Numbered from the stretch's first letter, positions 14,241 through 47,736 are shown. The stretch: 64,000 nt of DNA from Minisyncoccota bacterium (GCA_965204115.1 OZ241963.1:233293-297292); one strand, 5' to 3'. Made by a program: numbers and translations. The notes: generated from the sequence alone by a model not told the origin.

Positions 14241-16808
14241 TTATTGAGAGGTTTTACTGAGGTCTCCGATGGCGACCCAGCCCTCTTCGTAGCTTACGGG
14301 TGGTGCCTGTTTTTCTCTCTTTGGTGCGACTTTGAGATCTTTTTGTAGGCCGGTTGATTTTGTTGATTTTACTAAATCACCCAATCCGCCGCTGATGTTT
14401 GGGCGTGGTTGCGGTTGCTGTTTTTTTGGTGCTTCCTGCTGTTTGTTTTCTGTATCCGGCTTTGTGACCGACTGCTCGGTCGGTGGTGGCGCTGCCATAC
14501 TGCGTGCAATGGTTCCGGTGATCACGCCGTTTGGTCGGCGGACGGTGTCGGGTTCCTGCTGCTGCCTTTCCTGCCTTCTTCGCTGAGTCAATCTTTCATT
14601 TTTTGCTAATCTGTTTCTCTCTTGCTTTGTTTGTGCGATTGGCTTGTGCGAAGGTGTCTGCCTTTGTGTGTTCTGCCGGGGGTGTTGTGGCCTTTCCGAC
14701 TGCTGGCGCCTGTCCAGTGCAGGAGTTCTACCTCTCTGCCTTTCAGTGTTTCTGTGCTGCTGCGGTTTGCGTTGCTCGGGTCGCTCAGGTCGCTGTCTAC
14801 TGTTGTTGTGGCGTGTGTCATTTCTTTCTCTTTGGGAGGGGCGCTTGTTTCTTAGTTCGCGCGGCCTTTCAGGAGCGGCATCTCGTGTGCGCTGTGGCGC
14901 AGTGTTTCTTGGTTCACGCTCCTGCCGTCTTTCGTTTCTTTTGCGGTCGGTGCGCTGTGGTTTCTGTATGTCCGCTTTGCGAGTATCTCTTTGTATATTC
15001 ATACCATCGTCTTTCTTTTCGGACACAGCAGGCGTGATGGGGTACTCTTTTTTCTCTTTTGGTTCGTGTGCTGTCTTCTGTGCCGGTGTTGGGGTTGGCG
15101 CTGCTTCAGTACTTTCTGTATCTGACACCGGCTCCGGCTCCGGTTGATTTCGTTTGAAAATTCCTTTGAGTAGCGGCGCGCGCTTTTTTTCAGTGCTTGC
15201 TGCATCTGCTCTCTCATCTCTGCTGTCTGCTTTGCTGTCTGTCTTAACGATAGGGACCGACTTGGCATCTTGTTTTTCTGCCTTGGCTTTGCTGTCGTCT
15301 TGTGCGGTTTGTTTTTTCGGCTTTTCTGTTTTTTGTTTTTCGGTATTCGTCTGTCCGCTGCCGTGTTGCTGTATCTGTTGCACTAATCCTTTCAGCGGGG
15401 TGTGCGTCTCGTTTCCTTTTTGGCCGCCCTGTTTCTTTCTATCAGAGCCCTGCTGTTTGCCGCCTTTCCCTGTTTTTTCTTTTGCCTTTTCATCCTCCGC
15501 CAAGTTATCCGCGACTATTTTTTCTATCACATCCCGGTCAACGCCGTAGGTGTCCATTGTCCGCTGCACCACCTCTTCTTCCATTGAATCTTCAGTCGGC
15601 GGCGGCTCAAAGAAAGTTCGCGCAGAAAACGGCACAGACCCCGCGCCGTCAATGTTCAAGGTGAGGTAGATGTGGTATCGTGGCAGCGCGACTAAGTCCT
15701 CCTCCGCGATGTCCGGCGCGAATTGCTTTGAGATAATTTCCGCGTCAACCGGACCAACCCGAAACGATACAAAGGTGCCGACATTGCCGAACACTGCATC
15801 CCGAATCGCGTCTCCTCCGCCGGTGTCATCGGTATACAGCTGCCCTAAATACTGGTGCGCCATCACCAAATTCAGCTTGTACTTCCGCGCCTCGGATAGG
15901 ATGTCGGAAAAAGAGGAGTTTGCGAATGATTGGAACTCGTCAACGAAAAAGTTGCACGGGTTTGCTGCTTCCAGATGGGCGCGATCCAGATCGCTCCGTG
16001 ATAGTGCGGCGAGGTAGATTTTGGTCGTGAACAACACGCCGAGCATGCGCGCGTTGTTCTCGCCGACCTGCCCTTTTGAAAGGTTTACCAGCAGTATCTT
16101 CCCTTCATCCATAATCTCCCGAAAATTAAACGCTGACTTTTCCTGCCCGATGATGTTTCGCATCAGCGGGTTGGAGGTGAACTGTCCGAGCTTGTTTTGG
16201 ATGGATGGTGTCGCCTCCTGTGCGTACCGCTCGGTATAGTTTGCGTATTCCTCAACCCAGTATTTCCGCACCTGCGGGTCTTTCAGGTTGGCAACCACCT
16301 TTTCACGAAAATCTTTGCTGGAATACATCCGCCCCACATCAAGCAGCGTTGTTCCCGGATACTCAATCAACGCCAACAGTGTGTTCTGTAAAATGTACGC
16401 CATTCGATCCGACCAAGTTCCCGCTCCCCAAATCTTTTCAAATGAGGCCATTAAGCTGCTTACCACCAAATGCCGTTTATCGTATCCGATGTCCTCCATA
16501 ATGTTCAGCCCAATCGGTTTTTCCTGGTAGTGCGGTGCGAAGTAGATGATCTTGTCCAGATGCTCCGGTGTCACATACTTCAGCAGTGCCTCAACGGATT
16601 GACCGTGCGGATCCATAAATATCAGCCCGGTGCCGTTGCGAATGTCCTGCATCGCCAGCATTTCTAACAGCGTTGACTTTCCGGTTCCTGTCTGCCCGAT
16701 GACATAGATATGCCGTGACCGATCCTTTTCCTTAATGCCGAAGCGCACGGTATTCCCCCGCTTTTCTAATTCTCCCACTTGTACTATTCTTTCAGGATCG
16801 TATGCCAT
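14241..16808 (-). CDS. TraD/TraG/VirD4-family type IV coupling-protein-like ATPase (cytoplasmic, no N-terminal TM) with a long charged low-complexity C-terminal tail
   Basis: Walker A YVIGQTGTGKST and Walker B NFFVDEFQSF. The AAA-like fold resembles T4SS DNA-transfer ATPases. Residues ~438-830 are K/E/R/Q/P-rich and disordered. Confidence 0.5.
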   Translation of the reverse strand: MAYDPERIVQVGELEKRGNTVRFGIKEKDRSRHIYVIGQTGTGKSTLLEMLAMQDIRNGTGLIFMDPHGQSVEALLKYVTPEHLDKIIYFAPHYQEKPIGLNIMEDIGYDKRHLVVSSLMASFEKIWGAGTWSDRMAYILQNTLLALIEYPGTTLLDVGRMYSSKDFREKVVANLKDPQVRKYWVEEYANYTERYAQEATPSIQNKLGQFTSNPLMRNIIGQEKSAFNFREIMDEGKILLVNLSKGQVGENNARMLGVLFTTKIYLAALSRSDLDRAHLEAANPCNFFVDEFQSFANSSFSDILSEARKYKLNLVMAHQYLGQLYTDDTGGGDAIRDAVFGNVGTFVSFRVGPVDAEIISKQFAPDIAEEDLVALPRYHIYLTLNIDGAGSVPFSARTFFEPPPTEDSMEEEVVQRTMDTYGVDRDVIEKIVADNLAEDEKAKEKTGKGGKQQGSDRKKQGGQKGNETHTPLKGLVQQIQQHGSGQTNTEKQKTEKPKKQTAQDDSKAKAEKQDAKSVPIVKTDSKADSRDERADAASTEKKRAPLLKGIFKRNQPEPEPVSDTESTEAAPTPTPAQKTAHEPKEKKEYPITPAVSEKKDDGMNIQRDTRKADIQKPQRTDRKRNERRQEREPRNTAPQRTRDAAPERPRELRNKRPSQRERNDTRHNNSRQRPERPEQRKPQQHRNTERQRGRTPALDRRQQSERPQHPRQNTQRQTPSHKPIAQTKQERNRLAKNERLTQRRRQERQQQEPDTVRRPNGVITGTIARSMAAPPPTEQSVTKPDTENKQQEAPKKQQPQPRPNISGGLGDLVKSTKSTGLQKDLKVAPKREKQAPPVSYEEGWVAIGDLSKTSQ

Positions 16809-23968: not shown

Positions 23969-25150
23969 TCAACTATCCATCTTCCACCCATATGTCTTAT
24001 AGTAGGCGCGCATTCTCGCCTGCGCCCAGACGAAGTATGAGTAGAAGCGCTTGGTGTACCCTTTCCCTAGACCACTAAAGGCGTTTTTGGGTCCGGCGAA
24101 GTATGCACCGGTCGCATACTTCGGTCGGTTGACTATGCCGCTCTCTTTCATTATGAGAGCACCGGCTGTCAAGGACACAACCGGATCCCAAGGGTTGTGA
24201 GGTCCGGGTACTCCGAGGGTCTTTGCGATTTGATCTCTTCCTGGATGGTAGGTCAGTTTATATCCCCCTTGAACCGTAAAGAGGGTCTTCACAAACCCTG
24301 CGTCCCTAATGCGGCTTGCCAGGTCTTTTGGCATGTGTTTCCTTTTTATCGTCTTTCGAAAGTACTTCACCAGCCACCTGTTGGTGTTCGGACCAGGCAT
24401 CCCATCAACCGCCACCACCTTGCGCTTGAAGTATCGATTCAGTTTCCTCTGAATATAAACCAAATCTTTACCTTTCGCGTCATAGGACTTATGGCAGTTG
24501 GAAAATATCTTCTTGAACTTAAGTTCCCAACCACCCAGCCGAATATGGTTCGACGGAAGCACTTGTGCGCCACCAGAAGCGGACCCGTACCCACTTCCGG
24601 CGCTTTTTGAGGACTTTACTTCAGATGCGTTGTGCCCGAAGTGGTCTGCTAACGCATACGATGCGACACCGTCTCTATTGACGTGCGCATCCGCCAGTCC
24701 TTTTCCGGGTCTCCCGATATTCCTGAACATCTTACTCTCTTCTGAGAGCAGGCACATCAAGTATTCGGAAGGCACTCCGGTCTTACTGGCGACGAAGGCC
24801 ACCAAGTCCTCAATGGCGTACCAATCCATCTCCAGAATGTTCTTCACATTTCGGTACTGAATTGGCAGCACCTTGAAGATGTCACCCTCGCCCCACTTCT
24901 TGGGGTATGGCGTCGGCAGCAGGCCACCCTTCTTTCCCTTTTTCCCATTTACCGTTATGGTAGGTAGAGTGAAGGAGTGGGTGACCCGCTTGGTGGTCAC
25001 AGCCTGGTACCTCCTCTCCACATTAACAACCCTATACTTCGGCTGCCGTGTGAAGATTTCTTCCAAGAGGCCTGGGTTGGTTCCTTGGGTCAAGAGCCCT
25101 ATCCCAACCAGCATCATACATAGGGTGAAAAAAAATTTCAAAATTTTCAT
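23969..25150 (-). CDS. secreted protein with a putative peptidoglycan-binding (PG_binding_1-like) segment, possible cell-wall hydrolase
   Basis: Signal peptide MKILKFFFTLCMMLVGIGLL. KRKVVAVDGMPGPNTNRWLVKYF resembles the PG_binding_1 consensus. No catalytic motif could be confirmed. Confidence 0.4.
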   Translation of the reverse strand: MKILKFFFTLCMMLVGIGLLTQGTNPGLLEEIFTRQPKYRVVNVERRYQAVTTKRVTHSFTLPTITVNGKKGKKGGLLPTPYPKKWGEGDIFKVLPIQYRNVKNILEMDWYAIEDLVAFVASKTGVPSEYLMCLLSEESKMFRNIGRPGKGLADAHVNRDGVASYALADHFGHNASEVKSSKSAGSGYGSASGGAQVLPSNHIRLGGWELKFKKIFSNCHKSYDAKGKDLVYIQRKLNRYFKRKVVAVDGMPGPNTNRWLVKYFRKTIKRKHMPKDLASRIRDAGFVKTLFTVQGGYKLTYHPGRDQIAKTLGVPGPHNPWDPVVSLTAGALIMKESGIVNRPKYATGAYFAGPKNAFSGLGKGYTKRFYSYFVWAQARMRAYYKTYGWKMDS

Positions 25151-25367
25151 GGGGCAGAGCCCTCCTTTCCCCTTTCGAGGTTAGATTTTTTTAAGAATTA
25201 CGAAAAAATACAAGTATATTATAGCGAAAATTTGCTTAAATGTCAACCTTATTGCTCAAAAAACTCTTGTAAAATAAGGGTTTATTCTGGTGAGATCCTT
25301 ATATTCACCAAAATACCCCAAAAATCCCCCTATTTCGCTATATGTTGGTATACTGGTTATATTGCCT

Positions 25368-27955: not shown

Positions 27956-27964
27956 TGCTTTATG

Positions 27965-28047
27965 TGCCGGAGGTGGGACTTGAACCCACATATCTTGCGA
28001 TACACGATTTTAAGTCGTGCGCGTATACCAAATTCCGCCACTCCGGC
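27965..28047 (-). tRNA. tRNA-Leu (anticodon TAA), long variable arm
   Basis: The reverse complement folds with acceptor GCCGGAG/CTCCGGC, anticodon loop CTTAAAA, variable arm TATCGCAAGATATGT and T-arm GTGGG-TTCAAGT-CCCAC. Confidence 0.8.
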
Positions 28048-28118
28048 TCTTGCTCAGTATAGCAAATGTACAGAGATTTTAAACAGTTTTTACGGTATAC
28101 TGGAGGTGCCTGCTCACT

Positions 28119-28191
28119 CCGCCCATAGCTCAGTTGGTAGAGCAACCGGCTCTTAACCGGTAGGTCCTAGGTTCGAGCCCTAGTGGGCGGA
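28119..28191 (+). tRNA. tRNA-Lys (anticodon CTT)
   Basis: Acceptor CCGCCCA/TGGGCGG, D-arm GCTC-AGTTGGTA-GAGC, anticodon stem ACCGG/CCGGT with loop CTCTTAA, T-arm CTAGG-TTCGAGC-CCTAG. Confidence 0.8.
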
Positions 28192-28195
28192 CATC

Positions 28196-28279
28196 GCCGA
28201 GGTGGCGGAATTGGTAGACGCACTGGTCTTAGGAACCAGCGGGGTAAAACCCATGGAGGTTCAAGTCCTCTCCTCGGCA
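28196..28279 (+). tRNA. tRNA-Leu (anticodon TAG), long variable arm
   Basis: Acceptor GCCGAGG/CCTCGGC, anticodon stem CTGGT/ACCAG with loop CTTAGGA, variable arm CGGGGTAAAACCCATGG, T-arm with TTCAAGT loop. Confidence 0.8.
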
Positions 28280-28315
28280 CAAACAATTCCGCCACCTCGG
28301 TGGCGACTAGTTAGT

Positions 28316-28409
28316 CAGCACCAATCGGAGATTGGCGGCACGGGTAGACGCACTGGTCTTAGGAACCAGCGGGGTAAAACCCATGGAGGTTCAAGTCCTC
28401 TCCTCGGCA
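28316..28409 (+). pseudogene. partial duplicate of tRNA-Leu(TAG): 67 nt identical from D-loop to 3' end, with a non-pairing 5' acceptor
   Basis: GGTAGACGCACTGGTCTTAGGAACCAGCGGGGTAAAACCCATGGAGGTTCAAGTCCTCTCCTCGGCA is repeated exactly. The upstream TCGGAGA cannot pair with CCTCGGC (3 mismatches). An inverted copy of the tRNA 5' end (CAATTCCGCCACCTCGG, 28284-28300) lies between the two copies. Confidence 0.45.
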
Positions 28410-28528
28410 CCTTGCGTTTCGCTATGTGTTGTGTTTGATGTCTTGTATTAAAAACAAAATTGGGTTCCGTTTCCTGCTATACCGTATATGGTAAAGAGAA
28501 AACGAAACCCAATTGTAATGATCAAGTG

Positions 28529-29503
28529 CTAGTAGTCGTACTCAACTGATTCCCAGTAGCACTCCTGGGAGCCAACGAAGTGGGAACCGCTACCACCGCC
28601 CCCGCCAAAGTTGTAGTAGTTGTTGTACACAGGGCCTCTATACTGGTCGCCCCCGATGAAGTCGCGACCGACTTCCTCAACTTTGACGCCTGAATTTTTT
28701 GCGATTGCCTCGAGCAATCGCATCTGATTCCCCAGTAGATAGCCTTGGTGGTTCAAGGTGTCTACGAGGGCTATAAGTTGCTCAAACTCCTGGGTACCGT
28801 TCTCCCGTATGGCATCAATCAGCTTATTGGCCATCTCGTTCGCGCTGTTCATAGCGCTTATAAGGGCCGCATTCTTCTGATTGAGTTGGAACTGTAGCCA
28901 GGCTTCCCGCTCCTCCAGATCCTCGAGTCGTTGAGTGGAGGCCGGTCTTAGTAGGGAAAGTAGTTCTTTGTTGTACACTACTGTCCCTCTTTTGTTCAAG
29001 AACTCCCAGATCATTGCCTGATATTCCAGGGTTAGCCGCTTTTCATTTAGCTGTGCCTGAAACTCCGTTTGCTGCGCGGATGGGAGTGTCTGCGCAAACG
29101 GATTGAGGACGCTCTGCGGCGTCTGGGCGTTTCCAGGAGGTGTCGTTGTGGCAGTGCCTCCACCGCCTGTCCACGCTGGGTCTATGCGGCTCAGGCGAAC
29201 GATTGCCTTTTGCCCTTCTTTGATCGCGGGTGTCGGCGTTACTGACGCCGGGTTAACGAGGAACAGTGTGTAGCGTGCGGTGTCGCCGCCGCGTTTCAAT
29301 TCTGCTATCTGGGTGGTAGTCACCCCGCCGTTTGCATCAATGAATATCTGATTCTGCTGCACCCATTGCAGGATCTCTGTGCCTGTTCCTATTTTTCGGC
29401 CTTCGGGACATTGTTCAAGCCCGGTGACCAGGGTTATCTCTGCCGTTGCTGTTGTCGTTGCGAATGTGAAGATTGCTAATATTACTATTGCTGCGAATTT
29501 CAT
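28529..29503 (-). CDS. secreted hypothetical protein (324 aa)
   Basis: N-terminal signal peptide MKFAAIVILAIFTFATTTATA, Thr/Gly-rich linker, Gly-rich C-terminus. Confidence 0.45.
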   Translation of the reverse strand: MKFAAIVILAIFTFATTTATAEITLVTGLEQCPEGRKIGTGTEILQWVQQNQIFIDANGGVTTTQIAELKRGGDTARYTLFLVNPASVTPTPAIKEGQKAIVRLSRIDPAWTGGGGTATTTPPGNAQTPQSVLNPFAQTLPSAQQTEFQAQLNEKRLTLEYQAMIWEFLNKRGTVVYNKELLSLLRPASTQRLEDLEEREAWLQFQLNQKNAALISAMNSANEMANKLIDAIRENGTQEFEQLIALVDTLNHQGYLLGNQMRLLEAIAKNSGVKVEEVGRDFIGGDQYRGPVYNNYYNFGGGGGSGSHFVGSQECYWESVEYDY

Positions 29504-29562
29504 TTTTTCTCCTTTTTACGAGGAGGTGTGCAGCGACGCTGCAACACCTCTCTCTCTGTTAT

Positions 29563-31491
29563 CTATCGGTGCCCTCCCCTCACGAAGCGTCTCTTCTTTT
29601 TGTCGGAGGAGGGTTGTTCGGTTGTGATAAACTCAAAATCAATAGATGTCTCTGTACGACCGGACCGTGGCAGTAGGTATTCGGTGGTTGTTATCACCAC
29701 TTTGTACCCTGTTGCCGTTGGATTGGCCGACAGAAACTCTTGCTGTGCTGCCGCCATCTTCCGCATATGTGGATTGCGGAGGTACTGCTGGTACTCCGCC
29801 TTGCTCAGGAGGTCAGCGGCCGAAACGGTGATTGACGTCGGTTCTCCGATGAGAACCCTTTCTTCAGAAGAAGTTTCGGCGCTGTCATTGGTGTCGGTGT
29901 CCGTTGCTTCGCCACTTGCGTCTGGGGTCTCTGGTTTTGGCTGCCCCAGGAGTGCGAACCGGATCTTCGGCCCCAGTTCAGGGGTCCGGTCAAAAATCAC
30001 CTGAAAAGGTTTCTCTTTGAACGGATAGGCCTTGTGGTCCGTTATCTCGATCTTCATTTCATTTTTTGCCCACCATACAAGGCGGTCAAAGAATTCCTGA
30101 GGATCGAAATGATCCGTTTTGTCGGCAAAGTACACCAACTCGGTGAGTGATGTGATGTTCGCTCTGTCCGCTCCCGGCTCAAATCGCACCTTCTTGCCGG
30201 TCTCCCCTTCCTCTATGAAATAGATGATGGGGAAATCGTTTTCAGTGATTTGTCCTGGGTGTTTCCCTAATCCCTCGCCGATCAGGGTGAATAGCTCTAA
30301 GCTGGTTAGGTCTACGCTGTGCTTCTGTCTGAGCGTGTTCACCCGCAGAGATACGATGTCCTCGTACCTCTGAACGGTGTCACGGACTGCCGTTATGACC
30401 CGTTCGACCTCCATCGCACCTTCCGGGGTCAGGGTGTCGTATCGGATGATAACCGAGCGCTTCCACTTCCCGCCTTTTTCAGGGCGGTGTAGGAGCCCGT
30501 TATTCGAACGGAGGAAGCCGTACACCCTTTCGGGCTCAATACCCCACTCTTCGGCAACCTTAAGTGCCTCAAAGTCGGTATTGATTGGTTTGCTCTCCTT
30601 GTATCGCTTTTTGAACGCAACGGACACTTTTCCTTCTGCGTCTCGCCATTGGTAGACGATAAACTCAGGAAGAGGTTCCTCTGGTGAGACCTCCAATACC
30701 TCGTACAAGTTCTCTAAGCCGGCGGTCCAGTTCTCAACCTTTACGCCGTTTTTACTGAGGTAGGCAAGCGCCTTCTCCGTACTGGTGAACGGTTTCGGCT
30801 TGATTTTGATTTCTTCCGGCGTGGGTGGGGGCGCTGGGGCCTTATACCACTTCGGCGGGAATACATACAACGATGGTTTCCCGTCGGGGCCGAGGAATGG
30901 TCTGCCAGTTGTCGGGTCAAGGTTGACTGCGATTGACATCCGGTAGTCCGTGACTCGTTTCTTGCCAGCAAAGTATTTGCTGGACAAGATTTGTGACATC
31001 ACGAAACTCTGCGGCTCTGATACACTGAGCTCGCTGCCAACCCATTCAACGAATTCGTTGAAATGGGAGCGACTCTTGATCTCATTTGCATGGATCAAGC
31101 TGAATTCGAAGTCAGCAGAGTTCTCATCAATCCTCGATGCCGTTGCGTCTCCCGGAATAGTGACCATTATTTTGACCGCTCCCTCGCCCTGTTCAGGGAC
31201 GGGGACGATTTGGGCCACGACTGGTGGGTACACTCCGTCCTTGAACCGCACTGAGTGTTGTTCCTTTGCGGCAGCTTCAAATGCGGCAGGGTTTACCAAC
31301 ACCGCCTTGAATTTTTCGATCTTCTCCCATGTGTCGAGCGTTTGTGGGAGATCCGGGTTCATTCCCCTTGCTGTTAGTTCAGTCAAGATGGATGAATCTA
31401 ATACGCCGATCCCAATTAACGCGAGACCTGTTACTCCCCCGATTAAGAGGAGTAGCCCTATGACGAACAAGAACTTTTTCATCTTTTGCAC
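29563..31491 (-). CDS. large secreted or membrane-anchored hypothetical protein (642 aa)
   Basis: N-terminal hydrophobic signal/anchor FLFVIGLLLLIGGVTGLALIGIGVL; no enzymatic motif recognised. Preceded by a consensus sigma70-like promoter. Confidence 0.45.
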   Translation of the reverse strand: MQKMKKFLFVIGLLLLIGGVTGLALIGIGVLDSSILTELTARGMNPDLPQTLDTWEKIEKFKAVLVNPAAFEAAAKEQHSVRFKDGVYPPVVAQIVPVPEQGEGAVKIMVTIPGDATASRIDENSADFEFSLIHANEIKSRSHFNEFVEWVGSELSVSEPQSFVMSQILSSKYFAGKKRVTDYRMSIAVNLDPTTGRPFLGPDGKPSLYVFPPKWYKAPAPPPTPEEIKIKPKPFTSTEKALAYLSKNGVKVENWTAGLENLYEVLEVSPEEPLPEFIVYQWRDAEGKVSVAFKKRYKESKPINTDFEALKVAEEWGIEPERVYGFLRSNNGLLHRPEKGGKWKRSVIIRYDTLTPEGAMEVERVITAVRDTVQRYEDIVSLRVNTLRQKHSVDLTSLELFTLIGEGLGKHPGQITENDFPIIYFIEEGETGKKVRFEPGADRANITSLTELVYFADKTDHFDPQEFFDRLVWWAKNEMKIEITDHKAYPFKEKPFQVIFDRTPELGPKIRFALLGQPKPETPDASGEATDTDTNDSAETSSEERVLIGEPTSITVSAADLLSKAEYQQYLRNPHMRKMAAAQQEFLSANPTATGYKVVITTTEYLLPRSGRTETSIDFEFITTEQPSSDKKKRRFVRGGHR

Positions 31492-31571
31492 TCCTTGTAT
31501 TTGCTCCTCCGATGTGTCGAGGGCAAAAAAATTGTTGTTTGGTTGTTATTGGACAGATAAAGTCCATTGCA

Positions 31572-31600
31572 ATTATACCATTTTGCTATTGTTTTGTCAA
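31572..31600 (-). promoter_or_regulatory. sigma70-type promoter for the 642-aa secreted-protein gene (TTGACA-N17-TATAAT with extended TG)
   Basis: On the minus strand this reads TTGACAaaacaatagcaaaaTGgTATAAT, ~75 nt upstream of the ATG at 31491. Confidence 0.5.
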
Positions 31601-31721
31601 GGCACCACAGCGACACCTTTGCTGTCTGTGAGTATAGTAGCATAGGTGCTTTTTTTCCTTTTTTTTACGGGATATTTTGTGTGATTAGTGAGTTCTAAAA
31701 ATAGGTGTATTGGGGGGTTGT

Positions 31722-31756
31722 TTTAAAACAGAAGAAGGGACGGCTGGGCCGTCCCT
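31722..31756 (-). terminator. hairpin terminator downstream of the 31797..32777 gene (possibly bidirectional)
   Basis: GGGACGG-CTGGG-CCGTCCC stem-loop with a U-run on the minus strand (ttcttctgtttt). Confidence 0.4.
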
Positions 31757-31796
31757 TCTAACGAACATTACATTAATACAGTTGAGCGAGCTTGTG

Positions 31797-32777
31797 CTAT
31801 TTCAGTTCAACTTTTCCTTCGCCGCCTTCTTCAGATCCGTTATTCCCTTCCTGAAGCTTGTTCGCCTGCGCAATCGCTTCGGCGAGCTGACTTGTTTTCT
31901 TGTCACGGCGCTTGCCCCAGAAGCCCTTCACGCCATCTTTCGTTTCCGTAAAAATGACTTTATAGGCCTTGAAGCCATAGAATAAGACCAAGGGGAGCAG
32001 GATGATTACCGCACCAATCAGCCACCAGTTTATACCGTTGTCGTCGTGGACGACGGTGGTGGTTGAACCGTGGTTACCGTTGTGGGTTTCATCAGCAGCT
32101 GGAGGAGCCGAGCTGGACGGGCTGTAAGCGGTTGTTGCAACCAGGCCGTCGGCGATGAGCAAAGGCAAAATGTCCTGATTGGCCTTCATACTGCCAACGG
32201 TGTTGGCGGCCAACAGATACATCTCTTGGACATGGTCGCGATAAGCTTTCCACGCTTCCAGATTTGCACCTGCTTCCGGCACTGTAATTTCTTGGGCCAT
32301 ATCGTTTGCCGCAACCATCATGTCGAATGCGAGCTCTCGTTCTGCCTTGGTCGTTGCGCTCCCAGAGCTTGCAACCACCATTGCTGCTTTGATTTTCTCT
32401 TTCGCAGCTTCGGCTTCGCGTTTTGCGACGCGGGCAGCCTGCATGTCCTCGAACTTCTGTTTTGTAATCTTGTACCCGTACTCAGAGTCCGGGACGAAGA
32501 TTGCGTCTTTCTCAATTGTTCCTTGGAAAACAAACGCTTGGTCAATTAACCTACGCGCTGCGTGCGTCCCGCCGCGAATGTTATTCACGCGGGTTTGGGG
32601 AGACGCGTTTTCGTTTGGCTCCGCCGGGTTGTCTAAACTGCGGGGGGCGTCATGGATTGGCGGTACCGTTCCTGCGGTTCCTCCGCCTTCTCCTGGTTGG
32701 CGAAACTGTGCGTCTGCAGCAAACACTGTCATCAAAACTGTCAAAACTGTTAATGTGAAAATTCTAATGCGGGTCAT
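31797..32777 (-). CDS. secreted hypothetical protein with a C-terminal TM anchor (326 aa)
   Basis: Signal peptide MTRIRIFTLTVLTVLMTVFAADA. C-terminal WLIGAVIILLPLVLFYGF helix followed by a charged tail. Confidence 0.45.
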   Translation of the reverse strand: MTRIRIFTLTVLTVLMTVFAADAQFRQPGEGGGTAGTVPPIHDAPRSLDNPAEPNENASPQTRVNNIRGGTHAARRLIDQAFVFQGTIEKDAIFVPDSEYGYKITKQKFEDMQAARVAKREAEAAKEKIKAAMVVASSGSATTKAERELAFDMMVAANDMAQEITVPEAGANLEAWKAYRDHVQEMYLLAANTVGSMKANQDILPLLIADGLVATTAYSPSSSAPPAADETHNGNHGSTTTVVHDDNGINWWLIGAVIILLPLVLFYGFKAYKVIFTETKDGVKGFWGKRRDKKTSQLAEAIAQANKLQEGNNGSEEGGEGKVELK

Positions 32778-32921
32778 TGTGGGTGACTCCTTTTTATAAG
32801 ATATTTGTAGGTTGGGGGCCTACGAAAAATGAAGATTCACCCAATCTGTGTTCCGATTATCATAATAGCGAAAAAAAATAATTTGTCAACCCTTTAGGGT
32901 ATTTTGGCATATCTCTTTTCA

Positions 32922-32980
32922 GTATTAAAAATAAGTCGGGCACCTCTCACTTATCACTACTGTGCTATGTGAGGGTGCCC
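32922..32980 (-). terminator. rho-independent terminator downstream of the lipoprotein gene
   Basis: GGGCACCCTCACATAG...GTGAGAGGTGCCC hairpin with a U-run on the minus strand. Confidence 0.4.
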
Positions 32981-33031
32981 TTCTTTAAGATTGATCATTG
33001 AAAAATTGAATGAGCTAAAAAATTGAAAGAG

Positions 33032-33751
33032 CTACTGGATCGGGACCAGTTTATAGGGGATCGTTGGGAGACCGCCTTCACTGGACGCCGAAGTTGCGGA
33101 TGGGCTCGGGTAGACTACGAGTGCCCCGGACTTGATCCGGGCATCTTCGCCAACACGAACACTGTTTAAGATCATGGAAAACGCTGCCATTTCTGAGGCT
33201 TCTACGCTCCCGTATTCACCAACCGGTAACAAGTTCGTCGGAATTCCAGTGGCATTGAGCTCATTGATGTGCTCGGACGTCAGTCCCTCAGTGGCGACCC
33301 GCTGTGCGGTCTCGCTATCAACGACATTGTACTTGAAGGACGACGGTATGCCGCCTTCAGATGTCGCGGAAGTCGCGGACGGGCTTGGGTATACAACGAG
33401 AGCCCCGGATTCCAGGACAGATTCTTTGCCCAGTGTGGTGCTTGCGAGTACCATTGAAAATGCTGCTTTCCCGCTTGGGTCAGTGACGATCACATTCCCT
33501 GCCTCGATCCCGCCCTGCTTGCCATCCTTCAGGAGTGCTGCAAGCTGGGCGTTTGCGATGCGGGCGTTTAGCTCGGTTTCTGCCGGATCGGCGTCAACAG
33601 TAGTGTTATCGGTTTCGGACGGGGCGACCTCTTGGTGTGCCTGCATTTGGTGCGGCACCGTCGTACTCAGGCATCCGGAAATGGTGCCAATGATGAGCAG
33701 TGCGCACACGACCAATCCGACTCTTTTCGCGTTCAAAATCATCGCTTTCAT
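33032..33751 (-). CDS. lipoprotein with an internal tandem duplication
   Basis: Lipobox LIIGTISGC. The segment SGALVVYPSPSATSA(T/S)SEGG(I/L)P occurs twice, each time preceded by an AAFSM(V/I)L-like segment. Confidence 0.45.
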   Translation of the reverse strand: MKAMILNAKRVGLVVCALLIIGTISGCLSTTVPHQMQAHQEVAPSETDNTTVDADPAETELNARIANAQLAALLKDGKQGGIEAGNVIVTDPSGKAAFSMVLASTTLGKESVLESGALVVYPSPSATSATSEGGIPSSFKYNVVDSETAQRVATEGLTSEHINELNATGIPTNLLPVGEYGSVEASEMAAFSMILNSVRVGEDARIKSGALVVYPSPSATSASSEGGLPTIPYKLVPIQ

Positions 33752-33894
33752 GGAAATATACCTCTCTGGTTAGTCTGGTTAGTTAGTCAAAAAAATAAGA
33801 TGGTTCCTGGTACTGGTATGTGTAATGTTCGTCGTTAGAGAACTAGCCTTACGGCAAGTTTCCAGAGAAAGTGTACCAAAAAAAAGAGGTTGTG

Positions 33895-34194
33895 TCAACT
33901 GTAGATGGTTTCTGCGAGGTGCTGGAGAGAGGTCTGGATATCTCTTTCCGCTAACCTACTGACAAAGGCAATGATAGTCCAGACGGAGGCGATAATGAAG
34001 ATGCCGAAAATACTCCAGCCGAGTTTGGTGAAGAGGTCTTTCCTTTCGGTTGATTCTGCGCCGGCTATGAGCTTGATGGCAATGATGATAAAAAAGAGGA
34101 TGGCGATGAAGAGCATCCCTGCCATTAATGGGTTTACGATATGATCAAACAGGTTGTCGGCGATCTCTTTGGCTGAAAGGGCAAAGGCGAGCAT
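33895..34194 (-). CDS. small two-TM membrane protein, member 1 of a five-paralog family (VirB2/TrbC-pilin-like topology)
   Basis: Shares the core ...(K/R)..(L/M)G(W/Y)S(I/L)(F/I)G(I/L)F(I/V)..SVW.II with ORFs 34216-34611, 34608-35363, 36604-36951 and 36970-37353. Confidence 0.4.
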   Translation of the reverse strand: MLAFALSAKEIADNLFDHIVNPLMAGMLFIAILFFIIIAIKLIAGAESTERKDLFTKLGWSIFGIFIIASVWTIIAFVSRLAERDIQTSLQHLAETIYS

Positions 34195-34215: not shown

Positions 34216-34611
34216 TTATTGGGCCGGAGCGATTGATTCCACTTTTCGAAATTCTATATCCGGATTGCCCGGTCCGGCTGTGCCGAGAATGGCAGTTTGA
34301 AGGAGGGATACCAATCCCCAGACGCTGACCAGCACGAAAATGCCGATGATCCCCCATCCCATCCGCTTTTTTGCGTCTGTATTGGCTTCATTCTTACGGA
34401 TATAGTCCACCAAACCCCAGAAAAAAAGGAGGAATGCTATGGTAGCAGCGATGCCGATACATACTGCGATAAGCGGAGGGATATCAGCGACAAGACCTAA
34501 AATCCTATTAATCTCTTGTTCGGCAGGACCCTCTGCAAATGCAATGCCGGCGCCGGAATAAAAAAGTAGTGGGCAATAGGGTGCGTGTTGTGTGAATCTC
34601 TTCATTGTCAA
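34216..34611 (-). CDS. small two-TM membrane protein, paralog 2
   Basis: IAFLLFFWGLVDYIRKNEANTDAKKRMGWGIIGIFVLVSVWGLVSLL: two helices separated by a basic loop. Overlaps the next gene by 4 nt. Confidence 0.4.
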   Translation of the reverse strand: MTMKRFTQHAPYCPLLFYSGAGIAFAEGPAEQEINRILGLVADIPPLIAVCIGIAATIAFLLFFWGLVDYIRKNEANTDAKKRMGWGIIGIFVLVSVWGLVSLLQTAILGTAGPGNPDIEFRKVESIAPAQ

Positions 34612-35363
34612 CTGCAGTCAAAAGTTAGAAGGCGGCTTTTATTTGTATCGGCTGGGCAGTCACCAGAAACAAGGTCACATTTGTCTGTTGAACCCGTAAC
34701 GCCGTCTGCTTTCTTACACTTTGTGTACCCCTTCTTTTCCGTAGTTTGGTTTTTGCAACAAGGGCTTTTTAGATCTGATTCCTTTACACAAGTTGCTGAG
34801 TTTCCATCAGCATTTCTTGCAGGTCTTCCTTCGCTGTTTATATAACGAATACTCACGCTGCCCCCTCCACATCTCTGACTCCCCACTTCCGGCAGTGCAA
34901 TATTGTTGACCTGCTCTTCGCCGACTCCGACCCCAAGCACTCCACGGATAAATCCGATGATGCCCCATAAGGTTACAATCACAAAAATAGCCCCTAAAGA
35001 GTAGCCCATTTTGGTTTTTGCCTCCTCTTTCCCCTCCTCATCTCGGATATACTTGACCAGATTCCAGAAGAAGTAGAAAAAAGCGGCTGTAACCACAATT
35101 CCCACAAGAAGTCTCAACAGACCGGCAAACAAATTGCTCGCATCAAACAGTTGTGCAATCGGGTAAGAAATACTTCCCGGGCACACCTCTTTTGTGCCTC
35201 CGGGTGGTATGATGCATTCTTCGGATCCTTGCGCATCTGCCGGCAGTGAAACGAGGGAGAGGGTTGCGAAACTGAGGAAAAGCGCTGCCCCGATTATTGC
35301 AATATACAGGGTCTTTCGTATAAAAATTTGCTTTGGAGTCATGTGGTTATTATTATATATCAT
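34608..35363 (-). CDS. paralog 3: two-TM core plus a Cys-rich extracellular C-terminal extension
   Basis: FFYFFWNLVKYIRDEEGKEEAKTKMGYSLGAIFVIVTLWGIIGFI core. The C-terminal ~100 aa are Cys/Lys/Gly-rich (CCKNQTTEKKGYTKCKKADG...CDLVSGDC). Confidence 0.4.
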   Translation of the reverse strand: MIYNNNHMTPKQIFIRKTLYIAIIGAALFLSFATLSLVSLPADAQGSEECIIPPGGTKEVCPGSISYPIAQLFDASNLFAGLLRLLVGIVVTAAFFYFFWNLVKYIRDEEGKEEAKTKMGYSLGAIFVIVTLWGIIGFIRGVLGVGVGEEQVNNIALPEVGSQRCGGGSVSIRYINSEGRPARNADGNSATCVKESDLKSPCCKNQTTEKKGYTKCKKADGVTGSTDKCDLVSGDCPADTNKSRLLTFDCS

Positions 35364-35994: not shown

Positions 35995-36546
35995 GTGATT
36001 AAAAAAATTATTGCACTCTTGTTTGTCAGCGCATGTATCTCACTGTATGGTTGCGGTGGTGGTGTTCGCGGTTCCGGAGGCGGCTCGTTGCTTGATGGTG
36101 CCGGCAGACCGGTAACGACCGTTGTCGTGCATCATACTGCCGGTATGGCGAGCAACGACATCAAGCAGGTCGTCTCCGGAATCAACCGCCTGCATGCGCG
36201 AAAGTTTCGGAAGATGGGCAAGAGCTTGGGCCTTACCATTGCGTATCATTATTTGATTACACCGGATGGCAAGGTGTGGCGGACGCGGGACTTACAAGAT
36301 GTCGGCTACCACGCCGGTGACTGGGATGTGAACCTTCATTCCATTGGCGTCTGCTTGGTTGGTGATTTTACAAAATATCGTCCGACTAGGCCGCAGGTGC
36401 GGTCACTTGATCGGTTGGTGCGGCGACTGCGGAGTGAGCGGAATATCTCGAAAGTTATTCCTCACTCTTACTGTCGGGCAACGCTCTGTTGCGGAGAGTA
36501 CCTCAAGCGGGAAGTCCGCAAGCTTTCGTGGGGGAAGCACTTTTGA
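35995..36546 (+). CDS. N-acetylmuramoyl-L-alanine amidase (Amidase_2/PGRP domain), lipoprotein
   Basis: VVHHTAG...AYHYLITPDGKVWRTRDLQDVGYHAGDWDVNLHSIGVCLVGDF matches the zinc-amidase_2 signature. Lipobox LLFVSACISLYGC. GTG start preceded by AAGGAGG. Confidence 0.7.
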   Translation: MIKKIIALLFVSACISLYGCGGGVRGSGGGSLLDGAGRPVTTVVVHHTAGMASNDIKQVVSGINRLHARKFRKMGKSLGLTIAYHYLITPDGKVWRTRDLQDVGYHAGDWDVNLHSIGVCLVGDFTKYRPTRPQVRSLDRLVRRLRSERNISKVIPHSYCRATLCCGEYLKREVRKLSWGKHF

Positions 36547-36603: not shown

Positions 36604-36951
36604 TTATCCGGTGAAGAGGTTGCGAAGGAGGTAGACAATGCCCCAGAGGGAGAAGACAGCGAAGAGGATGATGATGCCATAGAGGAGGCGCTTTTTGGCA
36701 AAATCGGCGAGGTTGCCGTCACCTTTGCTGGCGGCGCGCATATAGAGGACAATGCCGTAGATGAATAAGAAGAAGAGGATGATCACGGCGAGCGGGATCA
36801 GAACTCCGCTGAGTGCCTGAATGCCAAGATCAACGACACCTTTGAGGGAGAGTGTCTCCCAGGTCGGCTGGGCGGATGCACTGCCGGCACTGACGGTTGC
36901 GATGAGTAGTGCGGGCAGGAGTATTGTTTTTGCGTGGCGATGTGTTTTCAT
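36604..36951 (-). CDS. small two-TM membrane protein, paralog 4 (with signal peptide)
   Basis: IPLAVIILFFLFIYGIVLYMRAASKGDGNLADFAKKRLLYGIIILFAVFSLWGIVYLL. Confidence 0.4.
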   Translation of the reverse strand: MKTHRHAKTILLPALLIATVSAGSASAQPTWETLSLKGVVDLGIQALSGVLIPLAVIILFFLFIYGIVLYMRAASKGDGNLADFAKKRLLYGIIILFAVFSLWGIVYLLRNLFTG

Positions 36952-36969
36952 ACTGTATTTTAATGCGTG

Positions 36970-37353
36970 TTAGTTTTCGGTAACGGTCTCTACTTGATAG
37001 TCACTCTCCACCAACTCATTGACCGTGTTTTGAATGACAAAGAGAATACCGCGAGTGCCGAGTACGAGAAAGAGTCCGATGAGCGACCAGCCGAATGCGT
37101 TTTTCCATTTTGTGTAGTCGGCGGTTTTCTCTCTGCCGGCGAGCACCATCTGGAAGCCGATATAGGTGATGGAAAGGACGATGATAGGCATCAGGATGAG
37201 GGTAGCGCCATTTGTCACGCCGATGATGAGGTCGCTGACACTGCAGTATTTTATCGGATTGCAGAAGATTGCGTCGGATGGGCACCCGCAATCTGCGTAC
37301 ACAACAGTAGGAGTGAGCGCGGTGAGGAGTGAGAGTATGGCAGCGTACAACAT
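36970..37353 (-). CDS. small two-TM membrane protein, paralog 5 (Cys-containing N-terminal region)
   Basis: LILMPIIVLSITYIGFQMVLAGREKTADYTKWKNAFGWSLIGLFLVLGTRGILFVI. N-terminal CGCPSDAIFCNPIKYC. Confidence 0.4.
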   Translation of the reverse strand: MLYAAILSLLTALTPTVVYADCGCPSDAIFCNPIKYCSVSDLIIGVTNGATLILMPIIVLSITYIGFQMVLAGREKTADYTKWKNAFGWSLIGLFLVLGTRGILFVIQNTVNELVESDYQVETVTEN

Positions 37354-38773: not shown

Positions 38774-41221
38774 TCACTGCACCATAGTGCTTGCTGTCAG
38801 TATATCATCCCCTTTTAGTTTCATAACCCGCACTCCCTGCGTCTGTCGCCCGCGATCAGGTATTTCATCCGTTGCCATCCGTACTATCTGCCCTTTTTTT
38901 GACATGGTTATGAGCTCATCATTTGATTCTTCCAAGAGTATGTGGATACCGACAACTTTGCCGGTCTTTGTGGTTACCTCGGCAGCTTTAATGCCGCTTC
39001 CGCCCCGTTTCTGTATTTTAAATGATCCCACTTTCGTCTGCTTGCCGTACCCTTTTTCGCTGATGGTCAGCAGGCGTCCGGTCGCTTTTGCGTTTTCCTG
39101 TATCACTAATGCGCCGATGACATGGTCGTCTTTTCCGAGTCGTATTCCGCGTACCCCTTTTGCGGATCGTCCGGATGCCCGCACCTCTTTTGCGGTAAAT
39201 CGAATCGCCTTGCCGTCCCGACTTACCAGAATAATCGTGTCCTCATTCGCACAGAACATCGTATTTACCAATTGATCTCCTCTATCAAGGGATACGGCGA
39301 TGATGCCGGTTTTGCGGATATTTTCAAACTGATCTATCGCGACTTTTTTTATCGTGCCGTTTTGTGTGACAAAGAAGAGGTATGAATTTTTCTTCGTGCC
39401 TTGTGCCACCGGCACAATAGAAGTTACCCGCTCGTCTGCGTCTACCGCTATGAAGTTAACGAGCGCGCGTCCGGTGCTTGTCCGTTTTGCCTCCGGTATC
39501 TCGTATGCTTTCAGCTGGTATACTTTCCCCTTATCGGTGAAAAAGTAGAGCATGTCGTGTGAGCTGGCAGCGGTGGAAATGGTAGTGAAATCCTCTTCTT
39601 TGAGCTCCGCCCCTTTGGTGCCGACACCGCCCCGCCGCTGTCGCTTATACTCATCGTTTGTTGTGCGCTTGATGTACCCGCCGCCGGTGATCATGATGAC
39701 GCATTGTTTTTCGGGAATGAGATCTTCATTGGAAACCGCGTTGTGTGCCTGACTCACAATTTTTGTGCGACGGTCATCCCCGAACAACTCTCGCGCTTCC
39801 TGTATTCCCTTTTTCACCTCCTCGTCAATCTTTTTCTTGCTCTGCAGGATGCCCTCCAGTCGCTTAATGGTTTTCTGCAGTGCTTCCAGTTCATCTTCTA
39901 CTTTTTTCCGTTCCAGCCCTGCTAATTTTTGTAATCGCATCTCCAAAATAGCGTTTGCCTGCACTTCAGAAAACTTGAATGCCTGCATCAGTGCTTTTCG
40001 CGCATCGCTTACTTCCCGCGATTTTCGGATAAGTGCGATAATTTTATCTATGTGGTCTAACGCTTTCTTCAGCCCTTCCACAATATGTGCGCGCTCTTTT
40101 GCCCGAGCAAGATCAAACTTAATTGCCCGTTCAATAATTACCCGCCGGTGATCTATGTAGGCCTGCAGGAGTTGATGCAGAGTCAGGGTCTGCGGCACGC
40201 CGTCAAGCAGTCCGACAATGTTGTAGTGATAGGTTTCCTCAAGCTGCGTATGTTTGTACAGCGCGTTCTGAAGCCGGTGTGGCTGTGCGTTTGACTTTAA
40301 TTCGATAACAATCCGTATATCATCTGTTGATTCATCGCGCAGGTCTTTAATGCCTTCTATTTTTTTGTTGCGCACCAGTTCGCCGATCTTCTCAATTAGC
40401 CGCGCTTTGTTCACCCGATATGGAATGGAGCTGATGACTAACCGCACACTTCTCTTATCTTCTACAATTTCAACTTCACCCCGCACCAGCACACCACCGC
40501 GTCCGGTCGCGTACGCTTGCGCTATCGCGTTGGTATCGTAGGCAATCGCGCCCATCGGAAAGTCGGGTCCCTTGATGTGCTGCAAGAGGTCTCCTGTGGC
40601 GGCATCAGGATTTTCAATGAGATGCGTGAGCGCGTCACACACCTCCCGCAGGTTGTGCGGCGGAATGTCGGTTGCCATACCGACGGCGATACCGAGTGTT
40701 CCATTCACCAATAGGTTCGGCACTCGGGCCGGCAGTACGGTCGGCTCTTCAATGGTGTTTTCATAGTTTGGAGCAAAGCTCACGGTTTTCTTTTCAATAT
40801 CTTCCAGCATTTTTTCCGCGTATGCGGACATTTTTGCCTCGGTGTACCGTTCTGCGGCGGGCGGATCGCCATCTATGGAACCAAAGTTCCCCTGCCCGGT
40901 AACCAGCGGATATCGCGTGACAAATTCCTGGGTCATTTTTGCCATTGCTTCGTACACCGCCAGGTTGCCGTGCGGATGGTACTTACCAAGTGTCTCACCG
41001 ACCACCGTCGCAGATTTACGGGTCTTCGCAGAATTTCGCAATCCCATACCGAACATCGCGTAGAGGATGCGCCGCTGTACCGGCTTGAGGCCGTCCCGTA
41101 CATCAGGCAGCGCCCGTGCTGTGATGACAGACATCGCATAGTCCAGATACGCACTGCGCATCTCTTCGGTAATATCCTTACTAAAAATCTTTGACGGCTG
41201 CTTTGCGGTGTCCTCTGCCAT
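38774..41221 (-). CDS. gyrA: DNA gyrase subunit A
   Basis: [16 protein letters not shown] (active-site region), [10 protein letters not shown], and C-terminal GyrA-box-type beta-pinwheel repeats. Confidence 0.9.
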
Positions 41222-41242
41222 ATACCTTGTTAGTATAGCATG

Positions 41243-41428
41243 TTATCCGTTCGGCACGATGTCCTGCTGTGTCTCTTGTGCCTCTTTTTCAAACAGCAGC
41301 GCGGGTTGATACAGGAAGAGGGCGATCGGTATCCATATCACGCATACGACAATGCAGGTAATAAGGGTGCGCCGCTTCTTTTTTTCGTTTCGTTCTTTTT
41401 GCTGTTGGAGAAACTCTTCGGGGTGCAT
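41243..41428 (-). CDS. small single-TM protein (61 aa) upstream of gyrA
   Basis: Basic N-terminus followed by the helix LITCIVVCVIWIPIALFLY; may be spurious. Confidence 0.25.
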   Translation of the reverse strand: MHPEEFLQQQKERNEKKKRRTLITCIVVCVIWIPIALFLYQPALLFEKEAQETQQDIVPNG

Positions 41429-41449
41429 AGCACCCTCTATTGTATCTCA

Positions 41450-42055
41450 TTATATGAAGAGAATAACGCTCGCCTTCCCTTCCAGCAGTGTCTTTTTCTT
41501 GAGTACATACTTACCGGCTATTTCTTCGGTGGCACCGAACTCTTTCGCCAGCTTTTTTTTCAGCGTGTCATTGTCGCCAATCGGGACGATGCGCTGCGCC
41601 TGTGCCTCGGCAGCGATGCCGGCAATACCGGTCGCGTCTAATCGTTTGTCTTTTGTTGTGCCGCAAAATACAATCAGCACATCAATATCGTTGACCTCGG
41701 AGACCACCTGCATTGCCTCTTTCCGTTCGGCGATATCACCCAATATCAATACCCGCATACCTTCTGCGTCAATGCACCACGAGGTTGTTTGCACGCGCAT
41801 TCCCTGCACAGTCGTTTCGGTACCGAACCCTCGGATGTAGATACTATCTTTCTCGTACTCACCGGCAGTGCGGAAATGCGCCTGCTCCTCGCCCTCTGTT
41901 GCGAATGCGCTCATCCAGCCACCAACCGGTACCGGGTAGGTGGAGAGGATGATGGTGGGCATTGACCCCTTATTGTTATCAGGAGGATTCACCGTAACAG
42001 TGCCTTCAGAAAATTTTAAAGCAACGCCGGTGGGGGCTGTCTGATGGATTTCCAT
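41450..42055 (-). CDS. hypothetical protein (201 aa)
   Basis: Intact ORF with genome-typical composition. A metallo-beta-lactamase fold was considered and dropped because no HxHxDH motif is present. Confidence 0.4.
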   Translation of the reverse strand: MEIHQTAPTGVALKFSEGTVTVNPPDNNKGSMPTIILSTYPVPVGGWMSAFATEGEEQAHFRTAGEYEKDSIYIRGFGTETTVQGMRVQTTSWCIDAEGMRVLILGDIAERKEAMQVVSEVNDIDVLIVFCGTTKDKRLDATGIAGIAAEAQAQRIVPIGDNDTLKKKLAKEFGATEEIAGKYVLKKKTLLEGKASVILFI

Positions 42056-46012: not shown

Positions 46013-46186
46013 GGGTTTTTTAGTAACAATAAAGGTTGCAGAATGCTTGTTTTTATGGTATAGTAGTAATATGTATAATTTGTAATAGGTGTTTTTCTTT
46101 AACACCTCGAACATTACAAATTATCAAAAAACTTGAAGAAAAAGTTTGAATTTCAACTTCCAAAACCCTTAAAGGAGGGTCTTACA

Positions 46187-47719: not shown

Positions 47720-47736
47720 ACTCTATTGAACTTTCT

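Follow-up and report, generated by a model that had tools for sequence, protein, structure and literature searches.

In a 64,000-nucleotide stretch of DNA from a Minisyncoccota bacterium (GCA_965204115.1, OZ241963.1:233293-297292; hereafter the window, with positions counted from its first letter) we identify a block of four consecutive genes, called A, B, C and D in their order along the minus strand. Comparison with related loci gives good support to the view that the four genes are an envelope module restricted to one lineage, in which architecture and promoters are conserved while the sequences fall into deeply divergent, exchangeable cassette types, and that the module lies at the end of an array of VirB2-like pilin genes. 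The block is the terminal part of this pilin-array locus, a context absent from the earlier note on this DNA, which had singled out the block as a run of secreted or surface-anchored proteins and a candidate host-interaction or adhesion module. The likeliest function of A-D, to which we assign a rough probability of 0.5, is that of an outward-facing complex for contact or recognition that acts together with the pilin or type IV secretion system (T4SS)-like apparatus. The four open reading frames (ORFs) previously reported at 28529-33751 on the minus strand (324, 642, 326 and 239 residues) were recovered by our ORF calls; the block and its two boundaries are as follows:

33032..33751, minus strand: gene A, 239 residues, predicted lipoprotein with two tandem modules of ~93 residues (ORF call, hydrophobic N-terminus, internal repeat)
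31797..32777, minus strand: gene B, 326 residues, type-I membrane protein (ORF call, hydrophobicity)
29563..31482, minus strand: gene C, 639 residues from ATG (642 from GTG at 31491), N-terminally anchored multi-domain alpha/beta protein
28529..29503, minus strand: gene D, 324 residues, secreted, without a promoter of its own, starting 59 nt after C (ORF call)
33895..34194, minus strand: pil99, last VirB2-like pilin gene and left boundary of the variable block (PF18895, 28.9 bits)
27964..28408: tRNA cluster, conserved right boundary, with Leu(taa) on the minus strand and Lys(ctt) and two copies of Leu(tag) on the plus strand

Cassette types in related loci

Eight syntenic loci besides that of the window were collected from contigs carrying homologs of C or D, or a GyrA belonging to the window's 90% cluster. 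A scan of metagenome contigs with pil99 recovered only two loci, one (L009) with the same cassette proteins as locus L006 and the other (L008) of 1.3 kb, which was left out. In every relative the site holds, in the same order, genes for a lipoprotein, a protein with a signal peptide, a C-terminal transmembrane (TM) segment and a charged tail, a protein of 576-666 residues, and a secreted protein of 183-324 residues; in the eight related loci this position is fixed directly after five pilin genes and an amidase gene. Presence and absence across relatives, the comparison advocated in the earlier note, thus proved constant with respect to layout and site, and it is the sequences that have been replaced, by at least four types that cannot be aligned with each other.

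This replacement is seen in the loci L003, L004 and L005, which are 97.7-98.9% identical to the window at the amino acid level in GyrA, 96% in the S1 protein, 86-95% in the pilin gene pil127 and 90-93% in pil99. In none of the three does tblastn find a match to A, B, C or D at 1e-3, though identities of 82-99% are seen in the genes on either side. Against L003, the DNA homology of the window ends at 33868, just past pil99, and restarts at 28393, at tRNA-Leu, the gap comprising exactly the four genes. The same left breakpoint at 33868 is seen against L004 and L005, whose contigs both end before the right breakpoint. Sharp breakpoints and conserved flanks of this kind are characteristic of recombinationally exchanged surface-antigen cassettes. 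The variable zone also reaches leftwards into pil131 and pil251, which are 34-93% identical between loci (34-67% in most pairs), and pil251 of L003 is closer to that of L006, a locus of the same cassette type, than to that of the window. Given that pil99 beside them is 79-98% identical in all compared loci, it represents a conserved island within this zone.

The cassettes fall into at least four types. Type I comprises the window, L002 and L013 (C 78-80%, D 60-63% and B 68.5% identical to the window proteins), and L010 belongs to it more remotely (A 35%, B 31%, C 33%, D 32%). Type II (L001 and L011) is 34% identical to type I in C, 27% in B and 43% in D over the C-terminal part only, and its A proteins are like those of type I only in the lipoprotein signal. 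Type III unites L006 and L007, which are 52-54% identical in A, B and C, with L003, whose identity to them is ~30% in A and 27-30% in C (27-31% across the proteins). Type IV consists of L004 and L005, with 68% identity in A, 73% in B and 86% in C. Between types I/II, III and IV no similarity beyond the signal regions was detected by BLASTP, tblastn, single-sequence hhalign or profile-versus-profile comparison; the profiles of A from types I and II matched with 93% probability, but over the first ~70 residues only. An apparent C-terminal motif common to D proteins of different types was lost on alignment, and the short motifs GA[ILV][IV][MV]YP (types I/II) and [VI][VI]G[AL]PK (type III) of A and D were not significant. 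Types I and II were found in one metagenome sample (L002 and L011), and types I-IV within one study.

The distribution of types is at odds with the relationships of the core genomes, as read from the GyrA marker and flank identities rather than from a genome phylogeny: the window shares its type with L010 (GyrA 91% identical) and not with L003 (99%), which in turn shares its type with L006 and L007 (90%). The synonymous divergence (dS) between L004 and L005 is 1.66 in A, 1.89 in B and 0.87 in C versus ~0.40-0.61 in gyrA, unk447, pil127 and pil99, i.e. 2-4 times higher in the cassette than in the flanks of the same genome pair, in a sample of few pairs overall. Within types, the ratio of nonsynonymous to synonymous divergence (dN/dS) of the cassette genes is 0.09-0.15. 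Together these values describe alleles that are older than their genomic background and under purifying selection. The C gene is additionally a mosaic, with residues 1-110 and the promoter region 50-75% identical between types I and II and the remainder 12-40%; against L010 the pattern is reversed, the better-conserved part being residues 400-500. The breakpoints, the type distribution, the dS values and the mosaic C taken together indicate that old cassette lineages are kept and exchanged by recombination in conserved flanks; simple fast vertical divergence does not explain the cassette types.

These observations also bear on a more mundane account, in which A-D are housekeeping envelope proteins or decaying ORFs and their divergence reflects relaxed constraint in a symbiont with small populations. 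While no function could be assigned to A-D and D is split into two ORFs in L001, the low dN/dS, the intact ORFs with Shine-Dalgarno sites and conserved strong promoters, the intact D of L011, which has the same type as L001, and the slow evolution of the neighboring genes all argue to the contrary. Relaxed constraint also fails to account for the raised dS and for the sharing of types at odds with GyrA, and we consider such an account very improbable. Rather than showing ordinary periplasmic housekeeping folds conserved across the lineage, the outcome that the earlier note had named as counting against its proposal, A-D are the least conserved genes of the region, and a fold search with C assigned no such function. 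The split in L001 (5006-5904) yields two overlapping ORFs of 140 and 176 residues in place of the 299 residues of L011, and points to a frameshift or pseudogene in a single lineage or, alternatively, to an assembly error.

At the right boundary, tRNA-Leu(tag) is duplicated in the window (28196-28280 and 28325-28408; 96% identical) and in L001, whereas L003 and L007 have one copy each. Compared with the window, L001 and L003, the tRNA block Leu(tag)-Lys(ctt)-Leu(taa) is inverted in L007 (19868-20608), L011 (3096-3417) and probably L013 (4408-4474). Inverted arms of 28-29 nt are common to the tRNA-Leu genes that face in opposite directions.

Adjacency to a tRNA cluster with such a duplication and such inversions is also what might be seen if the block were an integrated mobile element or prophage remnant at tRNA-Leu, with foreign surface or receptor-binding genes. 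We found no match to an integrase, transposase or phage family, and neither C nor pil99 has a relative in viral contigs. Moreover, the GC content of the cassette equals that of the surrounding genome, there are no flanking att-like repeats except whole tRNA genes (the full-length duplicate of tRNA-Leu(tag)), and a four-gene module of the same architecture stands at the site in every related genome. An origin of this kind is accordingly most unlikely.

The four proteins and their transcription units

Export signals and an envelope location had been claimed for all four products, and each was indeed found to possess an N-terminal hydrophobic signal: a lipobox in A, signal peptides in B and D, and a long anchor-like segment in C. 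The A protein displays the charged N-region, hydrophobic core and lipobox ([LVI][ASTVI][GAS]C) typical of bacterial lipoproteins (MKAMILNAKRVGLVVCALLIIGTISG-C27, with the lipobox ISG-C27), and is predicted to be lipidated. Its two modules read ...GALVVYPSPSATSA[T/S]SEGG... and correspond to an internal direct repeat spaced 279 nt. Its counterparts in the related loci all have lipoboxes (AGC, SGC or GC), making the A position that of a lipoprotein in each, and in several cassette types they likewise contain two internal repeats. The B protein is predicted to consist of a signal peptide, an ectodomain, a second TM segment at ~247-276 and a charged cytoplasmic tail ending in GKVELK. This architecture is the same across all cassette types, with sequence identities of 68.5% to the L013 counterpart and 27-31% to those of L001 and L010.

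Of the two possible starts of the C protein, the ATG at 31482 is likelier than the GTG at 31491, being preceded by AAGGAG at a distance of 8 nt and agreeing with the 639 residues of the database copy. The protein has a single long hydrophobic segment at residues 1-34, which is more likely an anchor than a cleaved signal, and is an acidic protein (pI 5.7) devoid of cysteine, with a basic C-terminal tail. The D protein has a classical signal peptide (MKFAAIVILAIFTFATTTATA|E), a variable N-terminal half and a conserved helical C-terminal part that ends in ...GSGSHFVGSQECYWESVEYDY. A Shine-Dalgarno sequence precedes each of the four genes. As for the C-termini, basic tails end the C proteins of types I and II (e.g. 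KKKRRFVRGGHR and KKFRGRYNR), Arg-rich tails end the type III D proteins of L006 and L007 (e.g. RRRFRGLRR), and the identical motif KVELK ends the B tails of types I and II; these tail motifs may serve in sorting or interaction.

None of the four proteins has a match at or near curated thresholds in Pfam, NCBIfam, PHROGs or PADLOC. The best matches lay far below the cut-offs (e.g. Hexapep on A, 20.9 bits versus a cut-off of 27), B and C gave no Pfam or NCBIfam match whatsoever, and none of the four matched PDB sequences. This agrees with the lack of any enzymatic motif asserted in the earlier note. The family of C counts only 3 clusters in a set of 5.8 billion proteins and 5 representatives in another of 1.84 billion clusters, and a profile built from 7 C sequences, when rerun against the former set, retrieved the same 3 proteins. 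Likewise, D forms only 3 clusters among 5.8 billion proteins, and a search of genome contigs with C recovered no relative. AlphaFold2 models of C had a mean pLDDT (per-residue confidence) of 49.8 with a 3-sequence alignment and of 65.2, with a pTM (global confidence) of 0.29, with 7 sequences; in the latter model, linkers of low confidence connect several alpha/beta modules, whose pLDDT is 70-88. Foldseek searches with it found no meaningful match in the PDB (best E-value 0.3) or in BFVD, where a single match at E-value 4e-4 had a TM-score of only 0.09.

The transcription signals of the block are as follows:

33870..33898, minus strand: promoter of A, TTGACA-17-(TG)-TACACT, 10/12 consensus positions plus TG
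32862..32889, minus strand: promoter of B, TTGACA-16-TATTAT, 11/12
31733..31759, minus strand: intrinsic-terminator-like hairpin after B, with a 12-bp stem, 8 G-C pairs and a T-rich tail
31572..31600, minus strand: promoter of the C-D unit, TTGACA-17-TG-TATAAT, with TG at -15/-14, 12/12 plus extended -10
28458..28514, minus strand: hairpin just 3' of D, with 18-nt arms that are 89% complementary, probable terminator of the C-D unit

The near-perfect TTGACA-N17-TG-TATAAT promoter that had been described before the 642-residue gene is real, matching the consensus at 12/12 positions, and the exact TTGACA-17-TATAAT pattern occurs twice in the 64-kb window versus 0.02 occurrences expected from shuffles. 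It does not, however, drive the whole block, as the earlier description had it: given that A, B and C have promoters of their own, that a terminator-like hairpin follows B, and that D lacks a promoter, the genes form three transcription units (A; B; C-D). These signals are conserved, with the A promoter being of the same form in 7/7 related loci containing A (TATACT in L007) and the B promoter being kept as TTGACA-16-TAT[T/C/A][A/G]T in every locus containing B. In every cassette type the counterpart of C has an upstream promoter matching at 11-12/12 positions and D has none. The second perfect TTGACA-N17-TATAAT promoter of the window (25218-25246, minus strand) precedes a gene at 23969-25150 on the same strand, whose 393-residue product starts with a hydrophobic segment, matches no family and is 79% identical to its L011 orthologue versus 96-97% for the neighboring IF2 and ClpB. 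It is another strongly promoted, faster-evolving envelope protein.

The consensus promoter of C, together with its acidic, cysteine-free product of ~600 residues, raises the possibility that the module codes for a surface layer (S-layer)-like coat, with C as the abundant subunit and A, B and D as anchoring components. The variation would then be mainly driven by phages that use the layer as a receptor, and the position beside the pilin genes would be a coincidence. The switching of types between conserved flanks, which resembles that of the Clostridioides difficile S-layer cassette, and purifying selection within a type are also consistent with such a coat. Nevertheless, the Pfam search with A-D detected neither SLH nor CWB2 nor any further domain that anchors S-layers, in types I and II the N-terminus of C is a long TM-like segment instead of a cleaved signal, and the predicted structure of C resembles beads on a string with a low pTM. 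Nor would a coat explain why the module is strictly linked to the pilin array at every locus, or why pil251 partly co-varies with the cassette type. We hence regard it as the likeliest alternative, though clearly less probable than a contact or recognition complex coupled to the pilin array.

The pilin-array locus and its surroundings

The inference in the earlier note that the DNA comes from a reduced, host-dependent bacterium finds support in the length of the source contig (661,662 bp) and in the closest named genomes, which are metagenome-assembled genomes (MAGs) of Ca. Kaiserbacteria and Ca. Paceibacterota. A scan of species-representative genomes using the solute-binding protein (SBP)-like neighbor recovered two such MAGs, namely Ca. 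Kaiserbacteria JAPOOC010000007.1 and the complete 696,550-bp Ca. Paceibacterota chromosome OY764332.1, with GyrA proteins ~90-91% identical to that of the window. The order gyrA, a 447-residue SBP-like gene, five VirB2-like T4SS_pilin genes with an amidase gene, A-B-C-D and the tRNA cluster is conserved in Ca. Kaiserbacteria. Apart from pil99, the array comprises:

34216..35363, minus strand: VirB2-like pilin genes pil131 (34216-34611) and pil251 (34608-35363)
35995..36546, plus strand: N-acetylmuramoyl-L-alanine amidase, lipoprotein-type (PF01510, E-value 2.8e-23; N-terminus ...LYGCGG)
36604..37353, minus strand: upstream VirB2-like pilin genes pil115 (36604-36951) and pil127 (36970-37353)

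All five pilin-array products are small two-TM proteins encoded on the same strand as A-D. Three exceed the PF18895 (T4SS_pilin) gathering cut-off of 26.6 bits (pil99 28.9, pil131 34.0 and pil127 33.5) and two fall below it (pil251 25.0 and pil115 17.7). The amidase gene lies inside the array in the opposite orientation, and is kept there in all six related loci that span the site (L003-L007 and L010).

This gene order, with the module directly after VirB2-like genes and a cell-wall amidase, and the composition of the module from lipoprotein, bitopic and secreted proteins, would also suit fast-evolving parts of the T4SS or pilus machine itself, with A corresponding to VirB7, B and C to VirB8/VirB10-type bitopic components and D to VirB5, and no separate adhesion layer. 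VirB7 has been described as small, fast-evolving and lacking a hidden Markov model (PMC12102498). Neither family models nor folds (e.g. the NTF2-like fold of VirB8 or the TrbI barrel) placed A-D with VirB5, VirB7, VirB8, VirB9 or VirB10: the VirB5, B8, B9 and B10 families of Pfam were not matched at E-value <= 0.1, and the C model had no significant fold match. Core machine parts are furthermore not expected to be unalignable at 99% GyrA identity while pil99 stays 84-98% identical to that of the window, which makes this reading an unlikely one, if less so than the mobile-element account or that of housekeeping or decaying genes. The window also encodes a VirD4-like coupling protein, an 855-residue DUF87/TrwB/TraG-type ATPase at 14241-16808 on the minus strand, 12 kb from the cassette.

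Several further features were noted in the surroundings. DNA homology to L003 and L004 is also interrupted by a second block, at ~46300-48596, whose flanks are 88-93% identical. Its ORFs code for a 528-residue N-terminally anchored protein (46133-47719) and a 208-residue protein (47912-48538), neither with a family match. Positions 1-8000 have a GC content of 35-39% versus ~50% elsewhere, and contain genes for an EcoRI-type adenine methylase (4930-5979) and a GmrSD/HNH endonuclease (3837-4928); this low-GC island is probably a laterally acquired restriction or defence island. A class-I aminoacyl-tRNA synthetase of 1173 residues (10646-14167, minus strand) has a His_Phos_1 domain inserted at residues 510-691. 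Finally, L003 has a zeta-toxin/AAA_33 gene (9034-9753) between a gene for a metallo-beta-lactamase (MBL)-fold protein and gyrA, where the window has only a short interval (41221-41450) without such a gene.

Proposed function and comparison with known systems

If A-D indeed form a contact or recognition complex, then A would be lipid-anchored on the outer face of the membrane, B would cross it, with an ectodomain on one side and a charged tail in the cytoplasm, C would be the large exposed component, produced at a high level from its consensus promoter, and D would be co-transcribed with C and secreted. The likeliest task of such a complex would be to attach to, or discriminate, a partner (host) cell, and the module may also, or instead, be exposed to phages. 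In this view purifying selection keeps several old, mutually unalignable cassette types working, and homologous recombination within the conserved flanks, i.e. the last pilin gene and the tRNA cluster, transfers them from one lineage to another, while their diversity would be upheld by frequency-dependent pressure from partners, phages or both. It is the hypervariability and the gene context that point to adhesion or host interaction; exposure at the surface beyond the export signals, complex formation, coupling to the pilins and a role in adhesion or recognition are likewise inferred.

Several observations weigh against this proposal. No adhesin-type domain or fold was detected in A-D, and the moderate AlphaFold2 model of C (pLDDT 65, pTM 0.29) matched nothing. 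As there is no demonstrable homology between types, their identification as the same module rests on position, architecture and promoter layout. The flanking DNA is 86-94% identical, so that the relatives are sister lineages and not strains of one species, and part of the cassette divergence could accordingly be fast vertical evolution. Lastly, no VirB4 or VirB6 gene was identified among the window ORFs scanned, and the link to a T4SS consists in adjacency to pilin genes only.

T4SS-like genes and VirB2-like pilin arrays are widespread in Patescibacteria, with 441 arrays described, and that of Ca. Southlakia epibionticum ML1, the one species tested, has been reported as essential (Quinonero-Coronel et al. 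2025, PMC12102498). According to the same survey, PrgB-type adhesins or their homologues were not detected in Patescibacteria, and the arrays have so far no adhesin assigned to them (PMC12102498). It is tempting, if distinctly speculative, to view A-D as this missing "adhesin", i.e. a lineage-specific partner-recognition complex of unknown folds at the working end of a VirB2-like pilus or T4SS, in which the cassette type would set the host and cassette switching would amount to a change of host range in bacteria of the Candidate Phyla Radiation (CPR).

A-D provide testable candidates for the host-contact component through which ultra-small CPR/Patescibacteria recognize and attach to their hosts. 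Their ancient types, recombination in the flanks and purifying selection within types form a population-genetic signature of molecules confronted with a partner that antagonizes or discriminates. Should the S-layer-like coat prove true, A-D would instead be candidate coat proteins for a CPR lineage. The locus also offers a simple typing marker for co-existing Kaiserbacteria lineages because primers in the conserved pil99 and tRNA-Leu bracket a typeable cassette, and the cassette type could be correlated with host or phage. No account of a cassette of this sort from a CPR lineage turned up in our searches of the literature.

Among known systems, the S-layer cassette of C. difficile, located in the slpA-cwp66-secA2 region, undergoes recombinational switching among about a dozen divergent types. 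It shares with the A-D locus a surface-gene block of several kb, conserved flanks, types independent of the clonal frame, strong expression signals and purifying selection within types. However, the two have no sequence or domain relationship: CWB2 is absent here, organism and envelope differ, the types here are not just divergent but cannot be aligned at all, and a lattice is not known in this case.

The arrays described in Patescibacteria resemble that of the window in their small two-TM PF18895-type genes, in being interrupted by a non-pilin gene and in their strongly differing paralogues (PMC12102498). The parts of the published description drawn on here feature pilin genes only and report no attached module, and no adhesins were found in that survey (PMC12102498). 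The window array, in contrast, has an attached four-gene variable module; it adjoins gyrA, away from any virB4, with no VirB4 found among the window ORFs scanned. The T4SS of Patescibacteria is related to the MPF-FATA class (PMC12102498), in which PrgA, PrgB and PrgC of pCF10 mediate cell-cell contact and, like A-D, are several secreted or anchored surface proteins encoded beside T4SS genes. Unlike these, A-D are anchored by lipid or TM segments, and no homology to the Prg proteins was found. As no Pfam family is matched by A-D, no LPXTG anchor or adhesin domain was detected; in particular Gram_pos_anchor is absent, and the tails are charged or aromatic.

A further parallel is offered by the VirB2 and VirB5 paralogues of Bartonella and Anaplasma, where outward-facing T4SS-associated parts diversify, presumably for interaction with, or evasion at, host surfaces (PMC12102498). 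There, variation takes the form of tandem amplification of paralogues within a genome, whereas the window locus shows allelic replacement of a cassette of non-pilin proteins of unknown fold between genomes. In its behavior, the locus matches a known kind of system, the recombinationally switched surface-antigen cassettes. What is new are four families without a curated match, C also lacking a known fold, their fixed association with a pilin array, the degree of divergence between types, and the presence of this kind of cassette in a CPR lineage.

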